DNA from: a virus
Lineage: Duplodnaviria; Heunggongvirae; Uroviricota; Caudoviricetes
Virus record (IMG/VR): IMGVR_UViG_638275541_000001
Reading direction: 5' to 3' (one strand)
Length of the DNA stretch: 64,000 nt
The notes beneath the pieces are model-generated. The model was not told where the DNA came from, searched no databases, and saw only the letters and a program-made list of their open reading frames with translations. A program made the position numbers and the translations under genes. Below are positions 4,131-14,533 of this stretch, piece after piece (the stretch's first letter is position 1; each line of letters opens with the position of its first letter).

Positions 4131-4803
4131 TGAAGTATTGTGCCATGCTTATGACTTACAGCCTCATGAGTTAGGACTTGATTCCTGTGTATGGACTCCA
4201 GAACAGTGCAGGGATTTTGAAGACACCGCAAGAGAAGTTGTATGCTCACTTGAAGAGTTCCACACATCAGAACCAATTGTGAACGTTGTGGACAAAGAGA
4301 CTGGGCAATCCATAGGTGTAAAACGTGATAGCTTAGTCATAGTCAACAAAGACCTTGTAGAGAAAGGTAATCTTATCTTAGCAGATATTGATGGAGTTCT
4401 TACAAATTTTAATCACGAAGATTGTTCAACGGAATTGACTGATGGTTCATTTTCACAGTACACTAATCTTCTTGATTCTGTAAGAGCAAAACCAACGTAT
4501 GTTTTCAATATCATTGATGCAATTGCTAATCATGCTGCCGTTGGACTCTTGACAGCGAGAGGTGAATCTCAGAGAATACCCACTGAGATGTTTTTAAGGC
4601 ATAACACGGAGCATGACTACATGCTTTTTATGCGTGGTTTTGGGACTAACTCTATAAGTGCAGAAAGTTTGAAAGTGAGGATGATTCAGTCTTGCATTCT
4701 GCCTTACTTTAATATAGTATGTTTTATAGAAGACACAGAGAAGAATGTGCAGAAGGTGAACAGAATCCTTCCACACATCAAAACCATGTTAGTTAAACAT
4801 TGA
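4108..4803 (+). CDS. HAD-superfamily hydrolase-like protein
   Basis: ILADIDGVLTNF matches HAD motif I (DxDGxL). Confidence 0.4.
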   Translation: MKKLRKSDEVLCHAYDLQPHELGLDSCVWTPEQCRDFEDTAREVVCSLEEFHTSEPIVNVVDKETGQSIGVKRDSLVIVNKDLVEKGNLILADIDGVLTNFNHEDCSTELTDGSFSQYTNLLDSVRAKPTYVFNIIDAIANHAAVGLLTARGESQRIPTEMFLRHNTEHDYMLFMRGFGTNSISAESLKVRMIQSCILPYFNIVCFIEDTEKNVQKVNRILPHIKTMLVKH

Positions 4804-4813
4804 GAGAAAACTT

Positions 4814-5278
4814 ATGAACAATATCATTACGGTAGCACTGGACGTTACGGCAAACAAATCTGAAGTAGTTCGTAACATTATCAAGAGCAACTTTGAGGGT
4901 AAAATCTTCCGTGCTGTCAATGTAAAAGCAGACGGTAACATTCGGGAGTATCGTGCCCTTTTGAATGTTAAGAAACACGTCAAAGGTGCTGGTTCAACGA
5001 CTGCACACAAAGAAAACCTGATGACCATCTATGATATGGGGATGGCTTCAGAATTAGGTGCTGAAGGTATCGTTAAAGAAGGTGCTCCGTATCGCTCTTT
5101 CAATCTGGAAACTGCTCTCATGCTTTCCTTTACAAGTGGTTCTAAAACAACTACTTATCTCTTTACTGATGCTGCAACGGTATCTGCTATCAAGGATAGC
5201 ACTGTCAAAGCTGGGGTAGCTGCTGCTGCAAAAGCTTCTTCGATGGCTGCAAATGTCCTTGCTAAAGTCCTCGGTTAA
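4814..5278 (+). CDS. hypothetical protein
   Basis: 154 aa ORF in co-directional array, followed by terminator. Confidence 0.45.
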   Translation: MNNIITVALDVTANKSEVVRNIIKSNFEGKIFRAVNVKADGNIREYRALLNVKKHVKGAGSTTAHKENLMTIYDMGMASELGAEGIVKEGAPYRSFNLETALMLSFTSGSKTTTYLFTDAATVSAIKDSTVKAGVAAAAKASSMAANVLAKVLG

Positions 5279-5289
5279 GGTTAAGATAC

Positions 5290-5311
5290 AGGCTCCTTCG
5301 GGAGCCTTTTT
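5290..5311 (+). terminator. rho-independent terminator
   Basis: GGCTCC-TTCG-GGAGCC hairpin plus TTTTT. Confidence 0.75.
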
Positions 5312-5330
5312 CATTTCAGGAGATTGTTAA

Positions 5331-5678
5331 ATGACATTTAAAGAGTTCTGTCAAGCTACTTTCATAATTGTTTTCTTAGTTGGGGCAGGTGTCTGGGGAG
5401 GATACTCTTACAGAGACTATCAAGTTGCTGAAACTGAGCTAAACAATCAAAAGCTCATAAGTGTTGCTAAAGATGCTTATCAGGAAGGATTAGTCACACT
5501 GAGCACCAATTACAAAAATGATTTGAAAGATGTGCTTGCTAAGAATAAGCATACAAAAGAGGTACTAACATATGAAAAAACTAAGCCAGAGTTTTATAAT
5601 GTTTGTGTTACTGATAACTATGTCAGGGTGTTCAACGAACAAAGTGAACAGTACATTCAAAAACTCCCAAGTAAGTGA
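5331..5678 (+). CDS. membrane-anchored protein, i-spanin-like
   Basis: AGGAG RBS; N-terminal TM helix (FIIVFLVGAGVWGG) then soluble domain; 3' end overlaps next gene by ~107 nt. Confidence 0.4.
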   Translation: MTFKEFCQATFIIVFLVGAGVWGGYSYRDYQVAETELNNQKLISVAKDAYQEGLVTLSTNYKNDLKDVLAKNKHTKEVLTYEKTKPEFYNVCVTDNYVRVFNEQSEQYIQKLPSK

Positions 5679-5841
5679 GAGCGATAAGTACACTCAAGAA
5701 GAGTCACGTTATATCATCAAAGGCAACACAGGCAGTGATGTAGCAGCAGCCCTTGAGTTCTATCGTGACGGCTTTTACCAGTGTACAATCAAAGCTAATA
5801 ACCTTATTGACATGATTTTATTAGGGAATAAGCAGCAATGA
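5572..5841 (+). CDS. lipoprotein, o-spanin-like
   Basis: GAGG RBS; signal peptide with lipobox (ITMSGC); overlaps preceding TM-protein gene in another frame. Confidence 0.4.
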   Translation: MKKLSQSFIMFVLLITMSGCSTNKVNSTFKNSQVSESDKYTQEESRYIIKGNTGSDVAAALEFYRDGFYQCTIKANNLIDMILLGNKQQ

Positions 5842-6107
5842 CAGAGAATCAAGAGACTTTCTATGTAGAAGGTTACTTACTGTTACCACGACCAAAAGAA
5901 ACTTATATGCGAATTGATTTCTCACCAACCATCATGGATAATGTGCTGTGCCATATCTTTATGCAAGGTGTCACAGCACAACTTAAGCATGTTGGCAAAG
6001 AGTGCAAAATAAAGGTTGACACTCATCCAGAAATCAAAGAGAATCACTACACATGGTTCTTACCAGACTCTAAAGAAATCTTAGCAGTTCTTAAAACGAG
6101 GAAATGA
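5838..6107 (+). CDS. hypothetical protein
   Basis: ORF in tightly packed early array (4 nt overlap). Confidence 0.4.
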   Translation: MTENQETFYVEGYLLLPRPKETYMRIDFSPTIMDNVLCHIFMQGVTAQLKHVGKECKIKVDTHPEIKENHYTWFLPDSKEILAVLKTRK

Positions 6108-6418
6108 TTATGCAATTCCAGCCAACAAATCGTGGATTTTCTTATGCAGAATTTAAAGATGCTAAAGGGGAAATTTGTACTTTACAAGAGAGTTCATCAT
6201 ACGAACCATGTATCTGGTTAGGTGCTAAAGAGGTCTCTGTTCAGTACCTAGATAATGGCTGGAAAACACTTGATATCCCAGCATTAGTTGGTAAAGATTT
6301 TGTAGGTAATCAAAGAATGAAGCTCAATCAAGAACAGGTAAAAGAGTTGTTGCCGTACCTCCAATACTTTGCTGAAAATGGTGAATTACCAACAGAGGAA
6401 CTTACAAATGCAGATTAA
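6104..6418 (+). CDS. hypothetical protein
   Basis: ORF in early array. Confidence 0.4.
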   Translation: MIMQFQPTNRGFSYAEFKDAKGEICTLQESSSYEPCIWLGAKEVSVQYLDNGWKTLDIPALVGKDFVGNQRMKLNQEQVKELLPYLQYFAENGELPTEELTNAD

Positions 6419-6734
6419 TGGAAGAGACTTTGTAGCCGTTTACTACGAGAAAGGTAAAGAGGTTGGTGTAGCACAAGTAACTTATGGCAATGGTAAGTGG
6501 CTATATGGAACAATCGCAGTAGTAGGAACAAGAAGTGATACAAAAACTTTTAAAGATTGTGTTGACCTTCTTGAAGAATCCATCCAGAATCATTGGTGTC
6601 TGATATGGATGACTGATAACGAAGTGATGGAGCGTTTCAAAAAGATTGATATCAACATTGACAGTATTGAGCATGTTGATTTATATGAGCTAACTGAGAA
6701 GGTAAACTATGAAAGTAATACTAGCCAGAGATAA
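6408..6734 (+). CDS. hypothetical protein
   Basis: start trimmed to internal ATG with GAGGA RBS; track ORF began at 6369. Confidence 0.4.
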   Translation: MQINGRDFVAVYYEKGKEVGVAQVTYGNGKWLYGTIAVVGTRSDTKTFKDCVDLLEESIQNHWCLIWMTDNEVMERFKKIDINIDSIEHVDLYELTEKVNYESNTSQR

Positions 6735-6936
6735 AAAGACACGAAAACTTATCAGGTCAGCAGTGTTCATTGGACGAAATGAGGTCATCCCATTTACAGC
6801 AAATGATGTGATAGCTTACAGGAAGAACTTAGTATTCACTGACTGCTTACGTGGCTTCATCTCTGAACCATTGGAAGACTTTAAAAGTCGTTGTGGTAAA
6901 GGTATCATCATTCAAGAGGCAACTATTCATGGCTGA
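6709..6936 (+). CDS. hypothetical protein
   Basis: ORF in early array. Confidence 0.35.
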   Translation: MKVILARDKKTRKLIRSAVFIGRNEVIPFTANDVIAYRKNLVFTDCLRGFISEPLEDFKSRCGKGIIIQEATIHG

Positions 6937-7129
6937 CTTCTGTAAAGACTGTTCTATCGAAATGTTCGGACGTGATACAGGTGACTTAAAAGGTCTTATC
7001 ACTGAAGAGGACTTTAAAGCTGGCTATGCAATGCCAGTAATCTGTGAAGGATGTGGATGTATCTGGGTAGACCACGAAGGACAACGTGTAAAACCTTCAG
7101 AAGATAAAGAATCTTGGGAGAGATGTTAA
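6929..7129 (+). CDS. small Cys-rich (zinc-ribbon-like) protein
   Basis: internal ATG start (MADFCKDCS...CEGCGC); AAGAGG RBS upstream. Confidence 0.4.
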   Translation: MADFCKDCSIEMFGRDTGDLKGLITEEDFKAGYAMPVICEGCGCIWVDHEGQRVKPSEDKESWERC

Positions 7130-7915
7130 ATGGGTATTATAAAAATCATCAATGGTGATATCTTTGCTGCATTTGATAAAGGTAAGTTTGACATCATTGG
7201 TCACGGTTGCAACTGTATGAATTTAATGGGTGCAGGTATCGCTGACAAGATTTCTAAACTTTACCCAAAAGCATATGAGACCGATACAGAAGTTTATCTA
7301 TATGCAGGTGGTATAGGCCACAAACCCTGTGAAAATTTACTGGGTAATTTCTCCGTAGCACGTTTAAAACAAGGTCGTATAGCTAACCTTTACACTCAGC
7401 TTAAGACTGGTAAAGATGCACGATACAGTGCTTTAGAGTCATCTTTGAAACAGCTTAACAGATACTGTGAAGTTAACCAGTTGAAGAAGGTTGGTCTACC
7501 TATGATTGGTGCAGGTATCGGTGGACTTGACCCGCAAGCTGTCACAGTTATCATCAATCAGGTCATGAAGAGTGTAGATGTTTATCTGTATGTCTATGAA
7601 GGAGAGATGTACCACAAGTTACGCTCAGGTTGGAAGAACTACTGTGAACCAGAATACTTTGCAGGCGTAGCTGTGTTCACGGATAATGCAGTTACCCTCT
7701 TCAGACGAAGAAAAGGTAAGATACATCAAAGTAACCCTCCGGTTGAAAAGATGTCTCTAAGTAACGCTCTAGTTACCCACCTGTCGAAGAGCAATCACAG
7801 AATTGCAGTAACATTTGGCAGTGATGCAGATACTTATATCTATGCAAGAACTGATGAGGATATCGAGTTAATCTTCTCTTCACCAGAGCTTACCTTCTTA
7901 GACGCAAAGAACTAA
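7130..7915 (+). CDS. macro-domain protein (ADP-ribose binding/hydrolase-like)
   Basis: IINGDIF...FDIIGHGCNCMNLMGAGIA and GLPMIGAGIGGL match macro-domain signature blocks. Confidence 0.5.
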   Translation: MGIIKIINGDIFAAFDKGKFDIIGHGCNCMNLMGAGIADKISKLYPKAYETDTEVYLYAGGIGHKPCENLLGNFSVARLKQGRIANLYTQLKTGKDARYSALESSLKQLNRYCEVNQLKKVGLPMIGAGIGGLDPQAVTVIINQVMKSVDVYLYVYEGEMYHKLRSGWKNYCEPEYFAGVAVFTDNAVTLFRRRKGKIHQSNPPVEKMSLSNALVTHLSKSNHRIAVTFGSDADTYIYARTDEDIELIFSSPELTFLDAKN

Positions 7916-7986
7916 GAAACTTCGTAGTATATTCACAATAGACTAAGCCTTTCTTATCTGGTAAATTTTTCAGGTAAGGAGGGCTT

Positions 7987-8167
7987 TTTCATTTCAGATT
8001 TGTGCAGGTAGAGTTCTGTAGAGAAATCTATAGAGAAAATTTTGAACTCCAAAGAGAAAATTCATTTTCAAACTGTGCAGGTAATCTCCAAAGAGCTTTT
8101 TCATTTTCAAAACGTGCAGACCCCGCTCAGGTCGGGCAAGAAAAATCATTTTAGAATTGTGCAGGTA
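7987..8167 (+). repeat. four direct copies of a ~23 bp element (TTCATTTTCAAANTGTGCAGGTA)
   Basis: copies at ~7987, 8059, 8097, 8145 upstream of the early-operon promoter. Confidence 0.7.
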
Positions 8168-8180
8168 GGTTTTTATAGAG

Positions 8181-8222
8181 AGCCAGCCCAGCCCCTCTCC
8201 CCCTCTTACTCCCCCTCCCCCC
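8181..8222 (+). repeat. polypyrimidine (C/T-only) tract
   Basis: CCCAGCCCCTCTCCCCCTCTTACTCCCCCTCCCCCC in an otherwise AT-rich genome. Confidence 0.8.
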
Positions 8223-8343
8223 AAAAGTCAAGAGAAAAATTTGTAGCGGATTGAAAAATAATTCTTGATTTGCGTTCTGTTTTGTGGTAGTCGTGTGCGC
8301 CCGTTCATTTCCCAACCTTACAAAAAATATTTAATAAAAACCG

Positions 8344-8372
8344 TTGACACGCCAAACAAGTTTACGTACTAT
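8344..8372 (+). promoter_or_regulatory. strong sigma70-type promoter (TTGACA-17-TACTAT)
   Basis: consensus -35, 17 nt spacer, near-consensus -10, ~50 nt upstream of first small early gene. Confidence 0.6.
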
Positions 8373-8422
8373 TTGCATCAGACGGGCAATCAAGCCACTT
8401 CCTAAACTGGAGAATCTAAAAA

Positions 8423-8629
8423 ATGCTTTACAGTCGTGAATTGATGGTTACAACCAACGTTAATACAAATGTAAAACGCTTTTACATGCAAGTATGTGGC
8501 GCATGGTCCAGAATTTCAGAAGCTGACTATTGCAACTATGTAGAAACAGCTATAAACTCTAATTGCTACCTTACAAGAAATACTAAGAATTTTACAAGGC
8601 AGACAGCAATTTACTATTACGATAAATAA
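8423..8629 (+). CDS. small early protein (unknown)
   Basis: ATG preceded by conserved leader CCTAAACTGGAGAATCTAAAAA. Confidence 0.5.
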   Translation: MLYSRELMVTTNVNTNVKRFYMQVCGAWSRISEADYCNYVETAINSNCYLTRNTKNFTRQTAIYYYDK

Positions 8630-8643
8630 AAAGTACTTTACAT

Positions 8644-8672
8644 GGGGCTTAAAAGTCTGTAAAGTAAGCCCC
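8644..8672 (+). promoter_or_regulatory. intergenic leader hairpin, type A (GGGGCTTA...TAAGCCCC + CAGATAAAGAG)
   Basis: GC-clamped hairpin followed by conserved CAGATAAAGAG and RBS leader; copies also at 9246 and 10313. Confidence 0.5.
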
Positions 8673-8716
8673 AGATAAAGAGCTTTACCACTTAATCCTA
8701 AACTGGAGATTCAAAA

Positions 8717-9229
8717 ATGAAAACTGTAGACGCTACTTTTGAAGTCGTAAAAGAAAAATTCACTATTATTTATGAAGCGGTAAATTGCTACGAAGCAAGC
8801 CATAATCTTGATAATTGGAAGTTTACAGATGACCATCAAGGCGGCGTGACTGTTAAAAATCCTAACTGTCAGTATAATGAATTTAAATATGCAATCCCTT
8901 TGCATTACAGCCTTAAACAGCTTTCAAGTGACTATGCAAAACAAGGCCGGGAAAATCCATCAAAAGATGCTTACATTAGCTTACAGAAAGAATTAGAAAG
9001 AGATTTAGAGGCTTCAGAATACGACCTTGCCGCGAAAGTTGTCGATGCAAATGGCAACACGGTTTTAGAGAGTTTTTATCTAGGATATGCCTTTGACTGG
9101 TGCTATAGTGACGGTGATGATTTAGAGGAAAGACTAAAAGAAGAGGTGAGCAATTCAGACGCAGAAACTGAAGTATTAGAACGTTTGGAATCATTAAAAG
9201 ACTCAGTGATGAATATCTTTAAGAACTAA
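8717..9229 (+). CDS. small early protein (unknown, acidic C-terminus)
   Basis: ATG preceded by conserved CCTAAACTGGAGATTCAAAA leader. Confidence 0.5.
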   Translation: MKTVDATFEVVKEKFTIIYEAVNCYEASHNLDNWKFTDDHQGGVTVKNPNCQYNEFKYAIPLHYSLKQLSSDYAKQGRENPSKDAYISLQKELERDLEASEYDLAAKVVDANGNTVLESFYLGYAFDWCYSDGDDLEERLKEEVSNSDAETEVLERLESLKDSVMNIFKN

Positions 9230-9245
9230 AGAGATTTCTTTACAC

Positions 9246-9273
9246 GGGGTTATCAAGCTGATAAGATAGCCCC
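9246..9273 (+). promoter_or_regulatory. intergenic leader hairpin, type A variant
   Basis: GGGGTTATC...GATAGCCCC: different stem sequence, same pairing, followed by CAGATAAAGAG. Confidence 0.45.
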
Positions 9274-9315
9274 AGATAAAGAGATTTATCAACTGTCCTA
9301 AACTGGAGATTCAAA

Positions 9316-9612
9316 ATGAAATTATCAAATAAAGTTCGTGAAAATCTAAGCAAGTTACTAAACAAAATTGATTTCATTGAAACATCAAGGAATAATCATG
9401 ATGTTATGGAATGGTTACATGGAAAAATAAAAGGCCGTCGTGTAGTGATTTGCTTATGGAATAGTTGCAGGGAGTATAAAAAACCTGTATTGCAAGTCAA
9501 TATTTATGATGACACTTTTAAAAGTCCAGTAAAGTCTAAAAGCGATTTATTAGAATCCTATGAGATAACTGTAAATGGCAAAGTATCACGTAAAGAGGAA
9601 ACACCATGTTAA
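9316..9612 (+). CDS. small early protein (unknown)
   Basis: conserved leader + ATG. Confidence 0.5.
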   Translation: MKLSNKVRENLSKLLNKIDFIETSRNNHDVMEWLHGKIKGRRVVICLWNSCREYKKPVLQVNIYDDTFKSPVKSKSDLLESYEITVNGKVSRKEETPC

Positions 9613-9938
9613 TGACTGGTATCACTGCAATCATTGCCATTTTCGCGCTATATAAGGCATATAAAGCCTATAATCTAGCAAATAAGGCAATCACACAGCA
9701 GGTTAGCAATAGCCTCGTAGAGAGCTTTCTAGAGCGCCTCAGTGATGAGCAAATAAAGCGGCTAGAGATGAGCTTCAGATATAAAGCGAAAACCTATCAG
9801 ATAAGTGACATCTTCAAAGATGATTTTCAGTTAGTCGATGATTATAATTCACTGATAAATGCTTTAAATATCAGTGGCTTAAAAGACTACTACGCTGTAA
9901 TTGTTCAAGAATTGAGCAAACGAAAACAAAGTGTTTGA
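9606..9938 (+). CDS. small membrane protein (N-terminal TM helix)
   Basis: overlaps previous gene by 7 nt; hydrophobic N-terminus ITAIIAIFALY. Confidence 0.4.
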   Translation: MLMTGITAIIAIFALYKAYKAYNLANKAITQQVSNSLVESFLERLSDEQIKRLEMSFRYKAKTYQISDIFKDDFQLVDDYNSLINALNISGLKDYYAVIVQELSKRKQSV

Positions 9939-9973
9939 CACTGGTTTTTAGATAGATTAAATTACACATCAAC

Positions 9974-9993
9974 GGGGAGGGAATGACCTTCCC
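9974..9993 (+). promoter_or_regulatory. 5'-leader hairpin, type B (GGGGAGGG-AATGA-CCTTCCC)
   Basis: preceded by TTGACA-N17-TAAATT promoter-like block and followed by conserved ACTAAATAAAGTCCTTAAACTAGGAGA RBS leader. Confidence 0.5.
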
Positions 9994-10027
9994 ACTAAAT
10001 AAAGTCCTTAAACTAGGAGACTCGAAA

Positions 10028-10300
10028 ATGTATACTACTAACAACGGTCGTACTCTAAACGTAACTTTACGGCACTATGTAGACGGTGTAATGCACTTTG
10101 AGGATTTACGGGCTGAACAACATATCTTAGATTGGCAAGTAGCAGGACTCCAAAAAACTGCTACGGGATACGGTAAAAAGATTCCAACCAGTTGGAAGGT
10201 ACACTATGAAGGACGTCTGCGCAGAATTTATCAAGATGTGTGTAGTAATAGCGCATCAAGTTACATCATAGTAAAAGGTAAAAAACTGCACTTAGTATAA
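10028..10300 (+). CDS. small early protein (unknown)
   Basis: start set at ATG after conserved leader; track ORF started upstream inside the leader. Confidence 0.5.
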   Translation: MYTTNNGRTLNVTLRHYVDGVMHFEDLRAEQHILDWQVAGLQKTATGYGKKIPTSWKVHYEGRLRRIYQDVCSNSASSYIIVKGKKLHLV

Positions 10301-10312
10301 AGTGCTTTACAT

Positions 10313-10341
10313 GGGGCTTAAAAGTCTGTAAAGTAAGCCCC
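10313..10341 (+). promoter_or_regulatory. intergenic leader hairpin, type A
   Basis: near-identical copy of the 8644 element. Confidence 0.5.
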
Positions 10342-10386
10342 AGATAAAGAGCTTTACCACTAAATCCTAAATTGGAGAACTTAAAA

Positions 10387-10791
10387 ATGGCTATTAATAA
10401 CCGTGAATTAGCAATCTTAAAAGCACGTTTGACCGTTAACCGGATTAATGTTATTACGTCATCAGCACCGGATGAAACATTGCATAACATTATTGGGAAG
10501 ATTCAAAGTGTTATCTTAGACGTTGAAAATGTAAAAAGTTCATTGGCTGACGTTGCAGCAGGTATCACGCTAGACGGCGCACAATATGAAATGTCCGACA
10601 TGTTAGGCAAATCAAAGGTAATGAATAAAGAATTAGACTTGAAAATGTTTCGATTTGCTGTCAAAGTGTGGCTATCTGTCGAGTATGACGCTAATTTTGC
10701 AATCGCTGATTTCTTTGCCACTTGGTTACAACGTAATTTGACAAATCACGATTTTCGTGATGTCTGTGATGCAATTTATGCAGAACTCTAA
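10387..10791 (+). CDS. small early protein (unknown)
   Basis: ATG after conserved CCTAAATTGGAGAACTTAAAA leader. Confidence 0.5.
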   Translation: MAINNRELAILKARLTVNRINVITSSAPDETLHNIIGKIQSVILDVENVKSSLADVAAGITLDGAQYEMSDMLGKSKVMNKELDLKMFRFAVKVWLSVEYDANFAIADFFATWLQRNLTNHDFRDVCDAIYAEL

Positions 10792-10839
10792 AAATTTTAT
10801 TGACACTGGTTTTTAGATAGATTAAATTACACATCAACT

Positions 10840-10859
10840 GGGAGGGAATGACCTTCCCC
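10840..10859 (+). promoter_or_regulatory. 5'-leader hairpin, type B
   Basis: GGGAGGGAATGACCTTCCCC preceded by TTGACACTGGTTTTTAGATAGATTAAATT block. Confidence 0.5.
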
Positions 10860-10894
10860 ACTAAACAAAGTCCTTAAACTAGGAGATTCTAAAA

Positions 10895-11236
10895 ATGGCT
10901 TATGTGACTGTAATTACCAATAAGGCAGATTCATCTTGGTCAACTCAGGTTAGTGATAAGATGTCACCTATGCAGTGTCTAAAATACTTTGAGCAATGGA
11001 ATAAAGGCGAAGATGTAAGCCCCTTTCAAGTAATGCAGATTATCCATGTAGACAACGAAGGGAAGAAAACAACTCTGAATAGTGAGTACTACGCAAGCCG
11101 TTTTGAAACGAGAAGTAAAACAATGAAGCTTCTTCGTGAATCCGGTTATCCTCATATTGCCGCTCTAATCTGGGATGACCTGCTAAAAAGTCAGCGTATC
11201 AGCTATGTAAAACCTGAAAAAATATTCATCAGTTAA
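10895..11236 (+). CDS. small early protein (unknown)
   Basis: conserved leader + ATG. Confidence 0.5.
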   Translation: MAYVTVITNKADSSWSTQVSDKMSPMQCLKYFEQWNKGEDVSPFQVMQIIHVDNEGKKTTLNSEYYASRFETRSKTMKLLRESGYPHIAALIWDDLLKSQRISYVKPEKIFIS

Positions 11237-11404
11237 TCAATAACTTACAAAAAACTTTTAAAAAAGTGTTGACAATACCCCTTGACATTGGTAACTTTGT
11301 TCGAGGGGGTTTATCTAAAAGGGATTCACTTAAAAGATTCTTTATAGATAAGCTTAAAAAATTGCTTGCAATCAGCTATCAAAACAAGTAAATTACTAAT
11401 CAAC

Positions 11405-11425
11405 GGGGAGGGAATGACCTTCCCC
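11405..11425 (+). promoter_or_regulatory. 5'-leader hairpin, type B
   Basis: GGGGAGGGAATGACCTTCCCC. Confidence 0.5.
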
Positions 11426-11458
11426 ACTAAATAAAGTCCTTAAACTAGGAGAGTCAAA

Positions 11459-11989
11459 ATGAACAAGTTTAAAGCTATCAACTTCATTCGTTCAAATGCT
11501 GTAATGTCTAAGCCTGTAAAAGATACATACGAATTTCGTTGTAATGGGGTACATTTCGCAACAATCACCAAATCAGAAAACGGGGCTTATTACGTTCATC
11601 GTCGTAATGTTTCGACCGTTGTAGTCTCTCACTTTATGCAAGCTGTAGCGGAATTATTACCGTTATTCTTAGAGATTTACTTAGATGAGTGTAAAAACGT
11701 TCACAACCACGTTAAAAGCCTTTTAAACGGTTATAAAATGGCTTATGAACGTTCTATCAAGTCACTAAACAAGTTCTATAAAGCCCCTGTAAATACTGTT
11801 TCAATGGCCTACGCTGCAAATGGTGAAAGGGTAAACCTATCCAATGTGGAAGAAATCGAGCTTTACGACCATCGACCTAGCGGTTACTCTAAGACACTGG
11901 GAGAAGGTTTATCTTTCAATATCAAGAACTTAGAAAAAACTTTAAAAGATATTGAAAAAGACATTGACGAGACAATCAAAAATCTGTAA
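11459..11989 (+). CDS. early protein (unknown)
   Basis: conserved leader + ATG. Confidence 0.5.
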   Translation: MNKFKAINFIRSNAVMSKPVKDTYEFRCNGVHFATITKSENGAYYVHRRNVSTVVVSHFMQAVAELLPLFLEIYLDECKNVHNHVKSLLNGYKMAYERSIKSLNKFYKAPVNTVSMAYAANGERVNLSNVEEIELYDHRPSGYSKTLGEGLSFNIKNLEKTLKDIEKDIDETIKNL

Positions 11990-12002
11990 ATTACTAATCA
12001 AC

Positions 12003-12022
12003 GGGGAGGCGATAACCTCCCC
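12003..12022 (+). promoter_or_regulatory. 5'-leader hairpin, type B with compensatory substitutions
   Basis: GGGGAGG-CGATAA-CCTCCCC: stem preserved by covarying bases relative to other copies. Confidence 0.5.
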
Positions 12023-12056
12023 ACTAAATAAAACCCTTAAACTAGGAGATTCTAAA

Positions 12057-12305
12057 ATGGCTACTATCCGCGCAACTGTTAACGAATTTGGCTTCTACTC
12101 TCTGGATGTTAAATTTGACATTGCAGGCACTGATAACGCCTTTGAAATGGTGAAAGGCCTTATCAGTCAGACCATCAAAGATTATAATCCTTCGGATGAG
12201 TTCTGGGAGGAAACAAAACAAGAAGTTCTCAAGGATGGCTATACTTATCACTATTGGGGAGAAAAAATCGTCTCCCTGTACTACAATAAACAAGATTATA
12301 ACTAA
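12057..12305 (+). CDS. small early protein (unknown)
   Basis: start at ATG after conserved leader; track ORF began at 11952. Confidence 0.5.
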   Translation: MATIRATVNEFGFYSLDVKFDIAGTDNAFEMVKGLISQTIKDYNPSDEFWEETKQEVLKDGYTYHYWGEKIVSLYYNKQDYN

Positions 12306-12343
12306 TCGACGCAGCGGGGCTAAATAGCCCCAGATACCCTAAC

Positions 12344-12368
12344 AGCCCCTATTTAAAGGGGCTTTTTT
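12344..12368 (+). terminator. rho-independent terminator closing the early array
   Basis: AGCCCCT-ATTTAA-AGGGGCT hairpin plus TTTTTT. Confidence 0.7.
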
Positions 12369-12639
12369 ACGTCTATCGAATCCTTATACAAACCCTTTCC
12401 ACCTCCTTTCTAGAATCTTATCAGACCTTAAAAACAATAACTCTATAGTCTACTCTATAGCCTTTTATCAAATCAACTTAAATATAAGCCCATAACCCGA
12501 AAGGGAAGGGCAACCACTAAAACGCTCTATAACGCTCTATAACAGCCTTATCAACCTAACTTAAGCAATCATATTAACCCACCCTAAAAAGCCCTTTATA
12601 AAGCTTCTTAGAGCCTTAAAAGAATCTTATAAGGGTGTA

Positions 12640-13830
12640 AGCTTTATTATCTCGTTAGCTATCTTGTGAACTACTAAAAAGGGCTTGGTAGCTCCTTTAA
12701 AGTATGTTATAGGGGCTATGAAGTTACTTCAAAGTAACGTAAAAGGGGCTTAAAAGTTACGTAAATGCTAGCCCCCTTAACATTTTCTTAACAATTTCTT
12801 AACAAATCCTACATAGTTATGCTTGTTAGAGACTTGTTAAATCTCTGTTAAGACCACGTAAAAGCCTTGTAAGAGTCTTTGGCATAGCCTTAAAAGCTCC
12901 TGTAAAGCCCTATAAAGAGCTATCCATACAGTTGAGGGGTAAATACTAGGGAGAGACTTAAAAGAGCTTATAAAGAGCTATAGAGAGCTTTTAAGAGGTA
13001 TGTTTAAGGAATCACTAAGAAAGGAAAGGGAACGATAAGAAAGAAGTAGTGACCATGTTAATAGCTTGTTAAAAAGGTTAAACACTTGTTAGGAACTTGT
13101 TAATTATCTTAACAAAATAACTCTTTAAAATTAACTTGTTAGCTCTTGTTAGTCATCTGTTAAGCATCTGTAAAGCCTATTCAGCACTTGTTAGAAAACT
13201 GTTACATCCTTGTTAGTTCTGTTAAGAAACTGTTAAGACCTTTGAAGAGTTGTTAAGAAGATGTGAGAACTGTTAAGAGATTGTTAAGGATATTTTAAAA
13301 TTTTGCAAAGGGGGTGTTAAGGGGCTGTTAAGGGCTACCAAGCAGATATACATCCTAATCAGATATTTTTCAGTTCCTTCAAAGACCCTAAAAAATGACT
13401 TGATAGCTCTATTTTATAAAAATTTTAAAATTCTGAATAATTACCTATACAGTCTTTTAAAAATACAGGTAGAAACAGGCTTATAAGATACCTTGTTAGT
13501 ACCGTGTTAGACCTTGTGAGATAAGGTCTGTAAAGATATTCCTGTTAAGTTTGTTAAAACAGTCTATATAGAGGCTTAGTAATACCTAGTGAACACCTAT
13601 AGAGGGTATCATAGCTGACATAGAGATTAAGAGGTGTATAGGAGCTTCTAAGAGGGTATAGAGAGATGGTTAAGGTGATTATATAGGCTGTTAAGAAGGC
13701 TTGTTAGAGGGCTAGTTAGAAGGGTTATACAGAGGGGCTATTAAGACCACTAGATAGTTACTAAGATACTATATAGTACTATATAACTATATAGAGAGTA
13801 AGATTAAGAAGGTTGTTAAGAAGGATAGAT
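12640..13830. repeat. ORF-free region with dispersed and tandem YTGTTARG repeats in both orientations
   Basis: ~30 copies of CTTGTTAG/CTGTTAAG and reverse complement TTCTTAACA; no ORF >60 aa between convergent transcription units. Confidence 0.8.
13045..13335 (+). repeat. core tandem array of TGTTAAG units with ~10-11 bp period
   Basis: e.g. 13207-13292: TGTTA motif recurs every 10-11 nt for 8 consecutive units. Confidence 0.75.
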
Positions 13831-13927
13831 ATTTTATTCACATATGATGGTGACCCAGAGGTTGGGACAACCGATAAAATTTTATAAAAATTAAAAAGCC
13901 CCCAATTAAGGAGGCTCTTAAGATATT

Positions 13928-14533
13928 TTAAATCAAACTTTCTAAAACTGTTTTTAGTGATGACTTAGTTGTCTGATAAAAATGAGTGAATCCGTTGTTG
14001 TTATCGAATATCTGCATCATAACAGCATCTCCCTTGATTGGATACACTCGGATATCATAGTGAAACCCGTTAAAGACAGCAGAACCATTACAGAACACAC
14101 TAAAATCATCCACTGAGATGTACTCTTCATGACCTGTGATTTTTATACAAACACCTTTACTCGGTCTCTTAGGGTTGATATCTTCCATCACAGACATACT
14201 CTGTCCACCAAGAGATACCATAGTGACCACTTTACGGTTCTTCTGTTTAAAGTACATCTTAACTTTCTGTAAAGTGTCTTCATAGAACGGATAAGACTTC
14301 TCTACAAAGATTCCTTCAAGTGGCTCTTTACCATTCTTAACTTCTCTGATATGTCGTACTGAGAAGACAAGCTGCTCTAGTATGTCAAGGCTTTCTTTGG
14401 ATAATGCTTCTCGAATATCACTCCAGTCAAGGACTAGGTAGTTACCTTCAACTTCTTTTAAGTTATCTTTTTCCATAGCTGTCACACCATTATCGTAAAA
14501 CTTGGTAGTCTGGTACTGCAAACTTGTTGTCAT
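13928..14533 (-). CDS. hypothetical protein
   Basis: 201 aa ORF, last gene of minus-strand block. Confidence 0.45.
   Translation of the reverse strand: MTTSLQYQTTKFYDNGVTAMEKDNLKEVEGNYLVLDWSDIREALSKESLDILEQLVFSVRHIREVKNGKEPLEGIFVEKSYPFYEDTLQKVKMYFKQKNRKVVTMVSLGGQSMSVMEDINPKRPSKGVCIKITGHEEYISVDDFSVFCNGSAVFNGFHYDIRVYPIKGDAVMMQIFDNNNGFTHFYQTTKSSLKTVLESLI

Follow-up and report, generated by a model that had tools for sequence, protein, structure and literature searches.

A variable array of small genes in Salmonella phage Felix O1 that is probably built from PeSL-like expression cassettes

We propose that this region is probably a variable accessory-gene array of Felix O1-type phages, made up of self-contained expression cassettes of the PeSL (promoter-early stem-loop) kind. 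The proposal draws on the anatomy of the cassettes, the conservation of their promoters, covariation in the type A stem and indel junctions that lie inside heads. Each cassette would begin with a head of about 70-90 nt, in which an AT-rich tract is followed by a putative host sigma-70 promoter, a stem-loop clamped by GGGG...CCCC and a uniform, presumably strong ribosome-binding leader; after each head would come one small gene of unknown function, which local initiation would provide with its own message. In type B heads, the promoter and a 10-nt segment ending in ATCAAC would be followed by a hairpin of 6-8 bp; this hairpin would stand 5'-terminally in the mRNA of its own cassette and would also be present in RNA read through from upstream. 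In type A heads, the whole promoter would lie inside a two-part hairpin whose structure forms only in read-through transcripts that enter from the cassette upstream. Hairpins in read-through RNA may insulate neighbouring cassettes, by transcription attenuation, as a block to 3' exonucleases or as a processing site. With about 87% identity at unrelated positions, the heads may also act as portable homology, recombination between them deleting, inserting or swapping cassettes while leaving the genes intact.

The window (the whole 64-kb stretch analysed here) corresponds to Salmonella phage Felix O1, as shown by the 100% identity of Salmonella phage FO1a to the array region. The coordinates published for terminators t13 and t23 of Felix O1 (PMC3185647) agree with those in the window. 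The genes and boundaries of the array are as follows.

7945-7994, + strand: intrinsic terminator t13 from a terminator scan (7947-7994 in PMC3185647), which bounds the array's transcription unit on its upstream side
8344-8372, + strand: promoter P15, TTGACA-N17-TACTAT, predicted +1 at about 8380 (or 8377)
8380-8422, + strand: gp15 leader region, with a weak hairpin GGC/GCC at 8385-8396 and leader A with Shine-Dalgarno at 8401-8413
8423-8629, + strand: gp15, 68 aa; phrog_5293, unknown function
8717-9229, + strand: gp16, 170 aa, acidic (pI 4.5); PHROG without named function; RT-PCR maximum at 5 min
9316-9612, + strand: gp17, 98 aa; PHROG without named function
9606-9938, + strand: gp18, 110 aa, hydrophobic N-terminus; 7-nt overlap with gp17, no head of its own
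10028-10300, + strand: gp19, 90 aa; PHROG without named function
10387-10791, + strand: gp20, 134 aa; PHROG without named function; RT-PCR maximum at 5 min
10895-11236, + strand: gp21, 113 aa; PHROG without named function
11459-11989, + strand: gp22, 176 aa; PHROG without named function
12057-12305, + strand: gp23, 82 aa, acidic; PHROG without named function
12344-12368, + strand: intrinsic terminator t23 from the same type of scan (12345-12368 in PMC3185647), the array end

The preliminary description had listed nine small, unrelated ORFs of 68-176 aa, and all nine are found on the + strand at 8423-12305. Their products show no mutual similarity and fall into separate BLAST families and separate PHROGs. 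None of the nine proteins had a Pfam match above the cut-off, an NCBIfam match at E up to 0.01 or a PHROGs match with a named function, and all nine are unannotated; the three largest had no PDB sequence match. The role of host-takeover or anti-defence factors, for which the preliminary description had made the proteins candidates, gained no support from these searches. By RT-PCR, transcripts are at their maximum 5 min after infection for ORFs 16, 20, 21 and 22 and at 25 min for ORFs 17, 19 and 23, so that timing is mixed (PMC3185647). The peaks at 5 min support the idea of an early-type array; nearly every small gene in it has its own putative sigma-70 promoter, a hairpin and a uniform ribosome-binding leader. 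We infer that the array is of an early type, and presume early timing for every cassette.

The head and leader repeats are real and far above chance. Leader A (CCTAAACTGGAGA) and leader B (CCTTAAACTAGGAGA) are each present in four copies, against about 0.16 and about 0.00, respectively, expected by chance in 64 kb, and a search of the rest of the window and of the other 19 kb of the genome found the repeat motifs nowhere else. A leader is carried by eight of the nine genes and a GC-clamped hairpin by seven (three of type A and four of type B). Thus, the claims that each ATG has a conserved leader, and each gene a GC-clamped hairpin of one of two families, hold with exceptions: gp18 (9606), which overlaps gp17, has neither element, and gp15 (8423) combines leader A with no more than a weak hairpin of 3 bp, in a leader region that folds no better than shuffled sequences (z -0.13). 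The strong promoter described upstream of gp15 is present. Relatives keep its boxes (TTGACT-N17-TAATAT or TAGTAT) with a different spacer, and in some of them P15 is fused to a full type B hairpin. Spacing and the pyrimidine-purine rule were used to predict all +1 positions given here.

Comparison with about 20 related genomes indicates that both head types are sigma-70 promoters, because the boxes stay 17 nt apart while the spacers differ. The 25 nt upstream of the -35 box are 77% AT, versus 61% for the window. Type A heads have the following parts.

8630-8716, + strand: type A head 1; lower stem 8630-8640/8676-8686, upper stem 8644-8651/8665-8672; -35 TTTACA 8637-8642, -10 TAAAGT 8660-8665, predicted +1 8673, leader A 8697-8709; read-through RNA at -26.5 kcal/mol, z -3.56
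9230-9315, + strand: type A head 2 (variant A2); lower stem 9232-9242/9277-9287, upper stem 9246-9254/9265-9273; -35 9239-9244, -10 TAAGAT 9262-9267, predicted +1 9274, leader A 9297-9309; stems of 11 bp and 9 bp with a 3x3 internal loop, -26.6 kcal/mol, z -3.96
10299-10386, + strand: type A head 3; lower stem 10299-10309/10345-10355, upper stem 10313-10320/10334-10341; -35 10306-10311, -10 10329-10334, predicted +1 10342, leader A variant 10366-10378; -29.8 kcal/mol, z -3.25

The type A hairpins, at 8644, 9246 and 10313, lie within the promoter TTTACA-N17-TAAAGT and not 3' of it. The upper stem encloses the spacer and the -10 box, and the lower stem pairs the stop-codon/-35 region with positions +4 to +14. 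When copies were collected with an anchor that leaves out the promoter boxes, TTTACA-N17-TAnnnT was kept in 119/119 distinct copies, while the loop varied. Every one of the 44 distinct core variants folds, with energies of -12 to -18.5 kcal/mol in 43, and in an arm-swap test the native energy was reached in none of 2000 permutations. The extended structure is 93.3% paired, versus 29-57% in slid registers, and its covariation score is 0.091 versus 0.055 in shuffles (0/500 reach it). Both sides have changed at three pairs, from G-C to U-A at two and from U-A to A-U at one; of these changes, the one in the GC clamp is that of the Erwinia phage copies. U.G pairs are frequent on the + strand (22/49 at one pair, 44/49 at another); on the opposite strand these would be mismatches. 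Since the predicted +1 (8673, 9274, 10342) lies directly 3' of the upper stem, the cassette's own transcript would be without the hairpin, and since the promoter is wrapped by it, the structure of about 20 bp would form only in read-through RNA.

Type B heads are organized differently, as listed below.

9935-10027, + strand: type B head 1; -35 TTGACA 9935-9940, -10 TAAATT 9958-9963, predicted +1 9971, hairpin 9974-9993, leader B 10006-10020
10800-10894, + strand: type B head 2; -35 TTGACA 10800-10805, -10 10823-10828, predicted +1 10836, hairpin 10840-10858, leader B 10872-10886
11366-11458, + strand: type B head 3; -35 TTGCAA 11366-11371, -10 11389-11394, predicted +1 11402, hairpin 11405-11425, leader B 11438-11452
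11964-12056, + strand: type B head 4; -35 TTGACG 11964-11969, -10 11987-11992, predicted +1 12000, hairpin 12003-12022, leader B 12035-12049

The type B hairpins start at 9974, 10840, 11405 and 12003, as first described, each 10 nt past TAAATT. The promoter TTGACA-N17-TAAATT assigned to several of them was right in its 17-nt spacing, which all four copies share, but an exact TTGACA is found only at 9935 and 10800, with TTGCAA at 11366 and TTGACG at 11964. Among 98 distinct copies, 89 have TAAATT as the -10 box and 95 have a -35-like hexamer exactly N17 from it, in at least seven unrelated spacer families. Head 2 is a chimera of two heads kept separate in relatives, head 3 is the best match to the covariance model, and head 4 has its -35 box within the end of gp22 and its -10 box across the gp22 stop codon. 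Compensatory changes had been reported for the type B stem. However, the pair in question, GGGGAGGG/CCTTCCC versus GGGGAGG/CCTCCCC, differs by a one-sided change from G.U to G-C and by a change in length, and no double substitution is involved. Across 88 distinct relatives, the stem is 93% paired, and 95% when the register is slid by -1; two-sided changes are no commoner there than in shuffles (the observed value is reached in 264/500), and the arm-swap test is marginal (92/2000). The claim fails because arms made of a G-run and a C-run pair in several registers.

Neither hairpin type is followed by a U-tract (the tails are AGAUAAAG and ACUAAAUA), and they are therefore not canonical intrinsic terminators. 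One more hairpin lies 3' of gp23.

12316-12336, + strand: type-A-like hairpin GGGGCT-AAAT-AGCCCC, then AGATA, without a promoter

That this hairpin at the array end is kept in 12 of 13 distinct relatives suggests that it has value apart from a promoter. We infer both the function of the hairpins and the transcript starts from the sequence.

Possibly, every hairpin is the 5'-terminal element of a monocistronic mRNA of its own, which it shields from 5'-end-dependent decay (RppH, RNase E) in the manner of the ompA 5' stem-loop, although we find this doubtful for the array as a whole. E. coli mRNA is stabilised by 5' stem-loops with very few unpaired 5' nucleotides. The type B hairpin begins 11 nt after the -10 box; in the invariant ATCAAC, the C-A step falls at positions 7-8, the A being the 8th nucleotide after the -10 box, and a start there would leave about 3 unpaired nucleotides before a stem of 6-8 bp at -12 to -15 kcal/mol. 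A 5'-terminal protective role is thus possible for type B, as its hairpin sets in about 3 nt past the predicted start; were the A at position 5 used instead, 6 nt would be unpaired. The preliminary description, which had placed all hairpins at transcript 5' ends, is plausible to this extent but not for type A, where the hairpins enclose the -10 box and end at -1. The conserved promoterless hairpin, and the type B covariation that does not exceed controls, also speak against it.

It is unlikely, on balance, that the type A structures are RNase III-type sites at which a polycistronic early transcript would be cleaved between its cistrons, in the way known from the T7 early region, with the embedded promoter secondary. 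The RNase III sites of T7 have the general shape of two stems with an internal loop between them, and the type A read-through RNA, with stems of 9 bp and 10-11 bp and a symmetric internal loop of 2-3 nt, has this shape. Its lower stem covaries, and P15 could feed read-through transcripts. Nevertheless, conservation of the promoter boxes does not depend on the stem (all copies have TAnnnT, whereas the loop varies), and type B heads, with a hairpin of only 6-8 bp, fall short of the length that RNase III needs.

We consider it improbable that the inverted repeats are DNA operators through which a phage or host regulator switches the cassette promoters off (or on) together, with RNA structure incidental. 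The promoter lies at the centre of the type A palindrome, invariant blocks such as AGATAAAGAG and ATCAAC are conserved beyond the needs of pairing, and the timing of Felix O1 transcription is without explanation (PMC3185647). However, the U.G pairs fit the + strand only, two-sided changes alter the sequence and keep the pairing, the loop varies freely, and an Erwinia phage has another stem sequence with the same architecture.

Returning to the cassette reading, relatives differ in which genes they carry. Across 22 loci, 24 gene families occur in conserved order but differ in presence or absence; the upstream block without heads is conserved. Six indel junctions, read base by base in seven genomes, all lie inside heads or leaders (6/6). 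All four combinations of hairpin and leader type occur, even for one gene in different phages, suggesting that head and leader types recombine freely. Heads are 86-87% identical at different positions and 89-91% at orthologous ones, a similarity that could come from selection on every position rather than from ongoing recombination. Multi-copy head matches were found only in Felix O1-like contigs of 51-90 kb, and related heads in Citrobacter and Erwinia members of the Ounavirinae. Cassette gain, loss and swapping with junctions inside heads is the main comparative feature of the region, and was absent from the preliminary description. It is hardly credible that the repeats arose by recent neutral duplication of a single intergenic region and have no function of their own: two window copies are nearly identical (83 nt at 95%), but heads have been maintained in Felixounavirus, Citrobacter and Erwinia phages alike, divergence of spacers and loops has left the promoter boxes intact, and the flanking gene is different at every copy, a conservation pattern that already contradicts this reading.

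Several known systems share part of this design. Lambdoid morons (independent promoter-gene-terminator units) are likewise single accessory genes inserted between genes with their own expression signals, but they have no conserved repeats at their flanks and move independently of their regulatory sequences (PMC2839356), whereas the Felix O1 heads are a repeated family with junctions within them. The stabilising stem-loop of the ompA 5' UTR resembles the type B hairpin, predicted at about 3 nt from the transcript 5' end; type A and the promoterless terminal hairpin cannot act in this way, and the type B position is a prediction. The early RNase III sites of T7 likewise stand between the cistrons of an early polycistronic unit as hairpins of two parts with an internal loop, the shape of type A in read-through RNA, but type A embeds a complete promoter and type B hairpins are too short. 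In integron attC arrays, small unrelated genes in conserved order are each bounded by an imperfect palindromic repeat where cassettes exchange; in Felix O1 no integrase is implicated, each cassette has its own promoter, and exchange presumably occurs by general homologous recombination.

The closest likeness is to the PeSL cassettes of T4-like phages (Arbiol et al. 2010, PMC2839356; Comeau et al. 2014, PMC4122927), so far described only in that group. A PeSL combines an AT-rich upstream tract, a sigma-70 promoter and a Shine-Dalgarno sequence with a GGGG...CCCC stem-loop that most often lies over the -10 box or between it and the -35 box; PeSLs occupy variable regions, where they adjoin genes without a known function and mediate indels (PMC2839356). 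The Felix O1 heads have the same parts, with the stem-loop between the boxes, over the -10 box or just after it, and the Shine-Dalgarno sequence before a start codon; they cluster in a variable region beside small genes of unknown function, and indel junctions between close relatives sit in the elements. The type A -35 box, TTTACA, resembles TTTACW of the T4/PST PeSLs. Felix O1 belongs to another lineage (Ounavirinae, about 86 kb) and has a single array in its genome in place of many variable regions. Its type A heads add a covarying lower stem, which brings the whole promoter inside the hairpin, and its leaders come in two discrete forms and are far more uniform. No sequence similarity to the T4-like PeSLs was detected, and no T4-type phage was among the matches listed for either head; the Felix O1 array thus appears to match the PeSL design and to be related to it by design, not by descent.

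The terminator coordinates published for Salmonella phage Felix O1 (t13, 7947..7994; t23, 12345..12368; PMC3185647) are also the window coordinates, which makes the window the Felix O1 genome from its position 1 onward. Genes 15-23 (gp15 to gp23) lie between these terminators on the + strand, and t13 and t23 alone passed a scan of the array region for intrinsic terminators. Salmonella phage FO1a (Felixounavirus felixO1) matches region 8200-12400 at 100% identity over 97% of the region, which is common to more than 250 phage records. The FO1a record shortens gp21 to 123 nt, whereas the window has an open frame of 342 nt. As previously proposed, the array contains nine small, mutually unrelated ORFs (68, 170, 98, 110, 90, 134, 113, 176 and 82 aa, in order); they form separate families and belong to one PHROG apiece, all of unknown function. 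Pfam, NCBIfam and PHROGs gave no named function for the nine proteins, the one Pfam match, of gp18 to DUF3139, being sub-threshold, and there was no usable PDB sequence match for gp16, gp20 or gp22. That the proteins act in host takeover or anti-defence is a reasonable guess.

Most of the genes are preceded by a head, a unit of ~70-90 nt made up of an AT-rich tract, a promoter, a hairpin and a ribosome-binding leader. In type A heads, of which A2 is a variant, the hairpin wraps the promoter; in type B heads the promoter comes first. The head motifs are confined to 8344-12368, as judged by a search of the window and the remaining 19 kb of the 83-kb genome. The preliminary description assigned a hairpin and a leader to each gene. 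This holds for most of them, but gp18, which overlaps gp17, lacks a head, and gp15, though it carries leader A, shows only a weak hairpin that folds no better than shuffled sequences. We conclude that the feature is real and well delimited, and that its first description was partly accurate. Its elements are as follows.

8344-12368, + strand: array of genes gp15-gp23
8344-8372, + strand: promoter P15, before gp15
8401, 8697, 9297 and 10366, + strand: leader A (CCTAAACTGGAGA)
8644, 9246 and 10313, + strand: type A hairpins
8673, 9274 and 10342, + strand: predicted type A transcript starts
9971, 10836, 11402 and 12000, + strand: predicted type B transcript starts
9974, 10840, 11405 and 12003, + strand: type B hairpins, after TAAATT-N4-ATCAAC
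10006, 10872, 11438 and 12035, + strand: leader B (CCTTAAACTAGGAGA)
12316-12336: type-A-like hairpin without a promoter, just 5' of t23

The promoter claimed before gp15, TTGACA-N17-TACTAT, is present. A plain count of sigma-70 consensus sites was uninformative (27 sites vs 20 expected in 7 kb), and promoters were therefore judged from relatives, namely six annotated genomes, IMG/VR contigs caught by two exact motifs, phage wV8 and an Erwinia phage. For type B, the anchor was the hairpin and the following ACTAA only. The -10 was TAAATT in 89 of 98 distinct copies, and a -35-like hexamer (TTGACA, TTGCAA, TAGACA, TTGACG, TTGACT or TTGATT) lay at exactly 17 nt upstream in 95 of the 98, the spacers falling into at least seven unrelated families. 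Type A heads, for which the sole anchor was CCCCAGATAAAGAG, showed TTTACA-N17-TAnnnT in all 119 distinct copies, with a loop in between that varied (TAAAGT, TATCTT, TAAGAT, TATGAT, TAGTAT, TACAGT and others). This conservation of the boxes is the pattern that would be expected of working sigma-70 promoters. Moreover, the 25 nt 5' of the -35 are 77% AT, compared with 61% in the whole window.

In type A and type B alike, positions 7-8 after the -10 are a C-A step. Since the usual spacing from the -10 to the start is 7-8 nt, with a pyrimidine-purine preference, the A of this step is the likely, predicted transcript start in both. The array had been described as early. In RT-PCR of Felix O1, ORFs 16, 20, 21 and 22 were maximal at 5 min, but ORFs 17, 19 and 23 at 25 min (PMC3185647); thus, "early" holds for some of the cassettes and less clearly for the others.

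The type A hairpin does not lie downstream of its promoter, as first described, but within it, in TTTACA-N17-TAAAGT. Read-through RNA is predicted to form a two-part hairpin, in which an upper stem of 8-9 bp (GGGGCTTA/TAAGCCCC; GGGGTTATC/GATAGCCCC in A2) is joined by a symmetric internal loop of 2-3 nt to a lower stem of 10-11 bp, formed by the stop-codon/-35 region (AAAGTACTTTA) and positions +4 to +14 (TAAAGAGCTTT). The predicted energies of the three folds are -26.5, -26.6 and -29.8 kcal/mol (z -3.6, -4.0 and -3.3). The predicted start is the first base past the upper stem, so that the hairpin ends at -1 and the cassette's own transcript would lack it. Each of the 44 distinct variants of the type A core folds, with energies of -12 to -18.5 kcal/mol in 43 cases. 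Swapping 3' halves between variants weakened the fold, the mean rising from -13.95 to -12.42 kcal/mol, with 0/2000 permutations reaching the native mean. The lower stem pairs in 72 of 74 haplotypes. Gapless RNAalifold recovered only 3 pairs, the A2 variant being 1 nt shorter, and was replaced by a MAFFT alignment of 49 sequences, including four copies from Erwinia phage Panisse, with a hand-set structure. In this alignment the 19 pairs were 93.3% paired, against 29-57% when the register was slid. Two-sided changes were found at three pairs. At two of them G-C became U-A, one being a lower-stem pair changed in 6 sequences and the other a GC-clamp pair changed in the 4 Erwinia copies; at the third, U-A became A-U. 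The covariation score was 0.091 vs 0.055 for shuffled alignments, and none of 500 shuffles reached it. A promoter enclosed in a covarying two-part hairpin is a previously unreported detail.

Nearly all of the ~40 genuine type B hairpin variants fold (6-8 bp, -10 to -16 kcal/mol), and an arm-swap test was marginal (92/2000). MAFFT put the stems of type B heads out of register because of indels, and a covariance model with realignment was substituted; over 88 distinct copies the stem was 93.1% paired and the -1 register 95.1%. Two-sided changes were not enriched in these copies, the observed number being reached by 264 of 500 shuffles. The pair of window copies cited earlier as compensatory is really a G.U to G-C change plus a change of length. 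Hence, evidence for compensatory evolution in type B is weak, as the G-run and C-run arms pair in several registers. No extended stem forms around type B hairpins. A reading of them as lambda nut/boxB-like, on account of their purine-rich 5-nt loops, seems unlikely, as the loops (AAUGA, GAUGA, GAUAA, AACAA) are too poorly conserved.

Leaders A and B had 0.16 and 0.00 matches expected by chance, respectively, and one or the other stands 8-10 nt 5' of the ATG in eight of the nine array genes. They are one U and one A apart, which together give an extra base pair in a mini-hairpin (3-4 bp) that pairs the Shine-Dalgarno with an upstream CCU: CC[UAAACU]GG in A vs CCU[UAAACU]AGG in B. Across the loci compared, form A was counted 204 times and form B 215 times, with only 5 intermediates (~1%). 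In Erwinia phage Panisse the leaders read CCUU-N3-AAGG, CCUC-AAA-GAGG and CCU-UAAAC-AGG. The mini-hairpin occurs in 8/9 array genes, as compared with 9/66 other window ORFs with a Shine-Dalgarno. This second unreported detail is suggestive of paired change, but linkage alone could explain the coupling, as the indels are only 7 nt apart.

The hairpin without a promoter, GGGGCT-AAAT-AGCCCC (12316-12331) followed by AGATA, is kept before t23 in 12 of 13 distinct relatives, which shows that the hairpin matters independently of a promoter. Most likely, we infer, the hairpins insulate neighbouring cassettes in read-through RNA, which they could do through attenuation, a 3' exonuclease block, or processing. 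The preliminary description placed a hairpin at the extreme 5' end of each transcript. By the predicted start this would be so for type B, whose transcripts begin with AAC and thus leave three unpaired nt before the hairpin, but type A fails here, its hairpin ending at -1; the type B hairpins may have an additional role in 5' protection, though it is doubtful that this is their main function. RNase III processing of type A read-through RNA, which has the shape of a T7-type site (~20 bp of irregular dsRNA with an internal loop, between cistrons), is a live alternative but an unlikely one, and type B does not have this shape. A broader scheme, to which we give little weight, would have the heads act throughout Ounavirinae as a common post-transcriptional code for the early accessory genes. 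Type A read-through RNA would fold and then be processed or insulated in an RNase III-like manner, whereas locally started type A RNA would be unstructured; the leader mini-hairpin, kept by paired changes between forms A and B and between CCUU/AAGG and CCUC/GAGG of an Erwinia phage, would be a switch through which a RegB-like nuclease or an RNA-binding protein of the phage could shut the whole array off together. That the hairpins are DNA operators is quite improbable: U.G pairs are common on the + strand of type A (22/49 sequences at one pair, 44/49 at another), which points to a structure of the single + strand and not to a symmetric protein site on duplex DNA. A function on the minus strand was rejected, as the G.U pairs are specific to the + strand, and so was an intrinsic terminator, as the tails, AGATAAAGAG and ACTAAATAAA, have no U-tract.

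Between the macro-domain gene and t23, 22 loci hold 24 gene families, in the same order and with differences in presence or absence; the upstream block, without heads, is conserved. In three-way alignments, 6/6 indel junctions fell inside heads or leaders, the sequence agreeing with one parent on the left, as far as the head, and with the other parent on the right, from the head outward. In NBEco004 two type B heads flank three extra genes, and the Felix O1 head between gp20 and gp21 is a chimera of these two; a 52-aa gene of NBEco004 is bracketed by copies of leader B, one on each side. Each hairpin type is found with each leader type, and one and the same gene can be preceded by different pairings in different phages. 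Heads are 86-87% identical at unrelated positions vs 89-91% at orthologous ones. At 222 nt, the spacer between gp21 and gp22 is unusually long; its stretch 11237-11365 has TTGACA twice, at 11271 and 11283 with 10 nt in between, and a 41-aa GTG ORF. It may be the scar of a lost cassette, an extra small gene (family F41) being found there in the loci of two relatives (L013 and L118). The array of Erwinia phage Panisse (Kolesnikvirus), at 4360-10510, has three head types, all with a hairpin around the -10. The head architecture is thus kept across genera despite diverged sequence.

Several neighbouring sites were also noted. From t23 to a convergent gene ending at 13928, the 1.5 kb at 12370-13900 is free of ORFs that reach 40 aa. 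The window has 32 exact YTGTTARG sites, against ~15 expected over its 64 kb, and 16 of them fall here. Many are 10-11 or ~20 bp apart, those at 12787, 12798 and 13108 are inverted, and the sequence is AT-rich at 13290-13310 and 13410-13440. This stretch resembles an iteron array, and may serve as a replication origin or bind a regulator. Between t13 and P15, 7985-8225 contains direct repeats of TCATTTYnnAWYTGTGCAGGTA, three clear (7989, 8062, 8146) and one degenerate near 8101, followed by a C-rich tract at 8187-8222; "gp14" of FO1a, annotated over this region, may not be a real gene. In the rIIA-rIIB intergenic region, a promoter-like TTGACA-aGGGGCTTtgaAGCCCCt-TAGAAT (2297-2326), whose spacer is a 6-bp GC hairpin, shares the head design outside the array, 5' of the conserved rIIB.

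The Felix O1 genome paper of 2010 lists repeats of 57 bp and 39 bp merely as direct repeats, and gives the way in which the phage times its transcription as unknown (PMC3185647). The wV8 GenBank record (EU877232.1) labels the heads DR_1 to DR_9, as direct repeats; the wV8 paper and a Felixounavirus comparison paper contain nothing on these elements. Public records of wV8 and XTG1 give the heads as direct repeats alone, and in places mark Rho-independent terminators on them, some on the minus strand. A permissive Rfam scan of 7000-14000 gave no match in the array and two chance-level matches outside it, none better than E = 0.55.

Read as cassettes, the array supplies candidates for eight early promoters, whose start sites can be tested, and block differences among otherwise near-identical therapeutic and typing phages would be explained. 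The heads would provide safe insertion points for engineering Felix O1-type phages, and delimit a pool of candidates for roles in host interaction, made up of ~24 small gene families.

This organization recalls the promoter-early stem-loop cassettes (PeSLs) of T4-like phages. PeSLs combine a sigma-70 promoter and an AT-rich tract with a GGGG...CCCC stem-loop, which mostly lies over the -10 or between it and the -35, and with a Shine-Dalgarno; they are found in variable regions beside genes of unknown function, where they mediate indels, and their promoter activity, attenuator activity and mini-circles have been shown experimentally in T4-like phages (PMC2839356). We found no literature linking PeSLs to Felix O1-type phages. 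Nor was homology to T4-like PeSLs found: among the matches listed by distant blastn with both heads were Ounavirinae phages and single Campylobacter and Staphylococcus records. The latter, Staphylococcus phage SA1 (GU169904.1), from an unexpected host, matches the type B head in five places at 93% identity, which suggests that this record contains Felix O1-like sequence. Because there is no sequence similarity to T4-like phages, the match to PeSLs appears to be one of design only, in another lineage. The design corresponds in several points. Sigma-70-like boxes at N17 recur across unrelated spacers and loops, preceded by an AT-rich tract upstream of the -35. G-run...C-run stem-loops lie in or beside the promoter in seven hairpins of the window, and nearly all hairpin variants of the relatives fold (-10 to -18 kcal/mol). 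The 3' end carries a Shine-Dalgarno and start codon in 8/9 array genes; the elements cluster in a variable region beside nine unannotated genes, and crossovers between relatives fell inside them at all six junctions aligned. We therefore regard the Felix O1 array as probably made up of PeSL-like cassettes, which would extend the PeSL design past T4-like phages and suggest convergent evolution of portable cassettes for accessory-gene expression.
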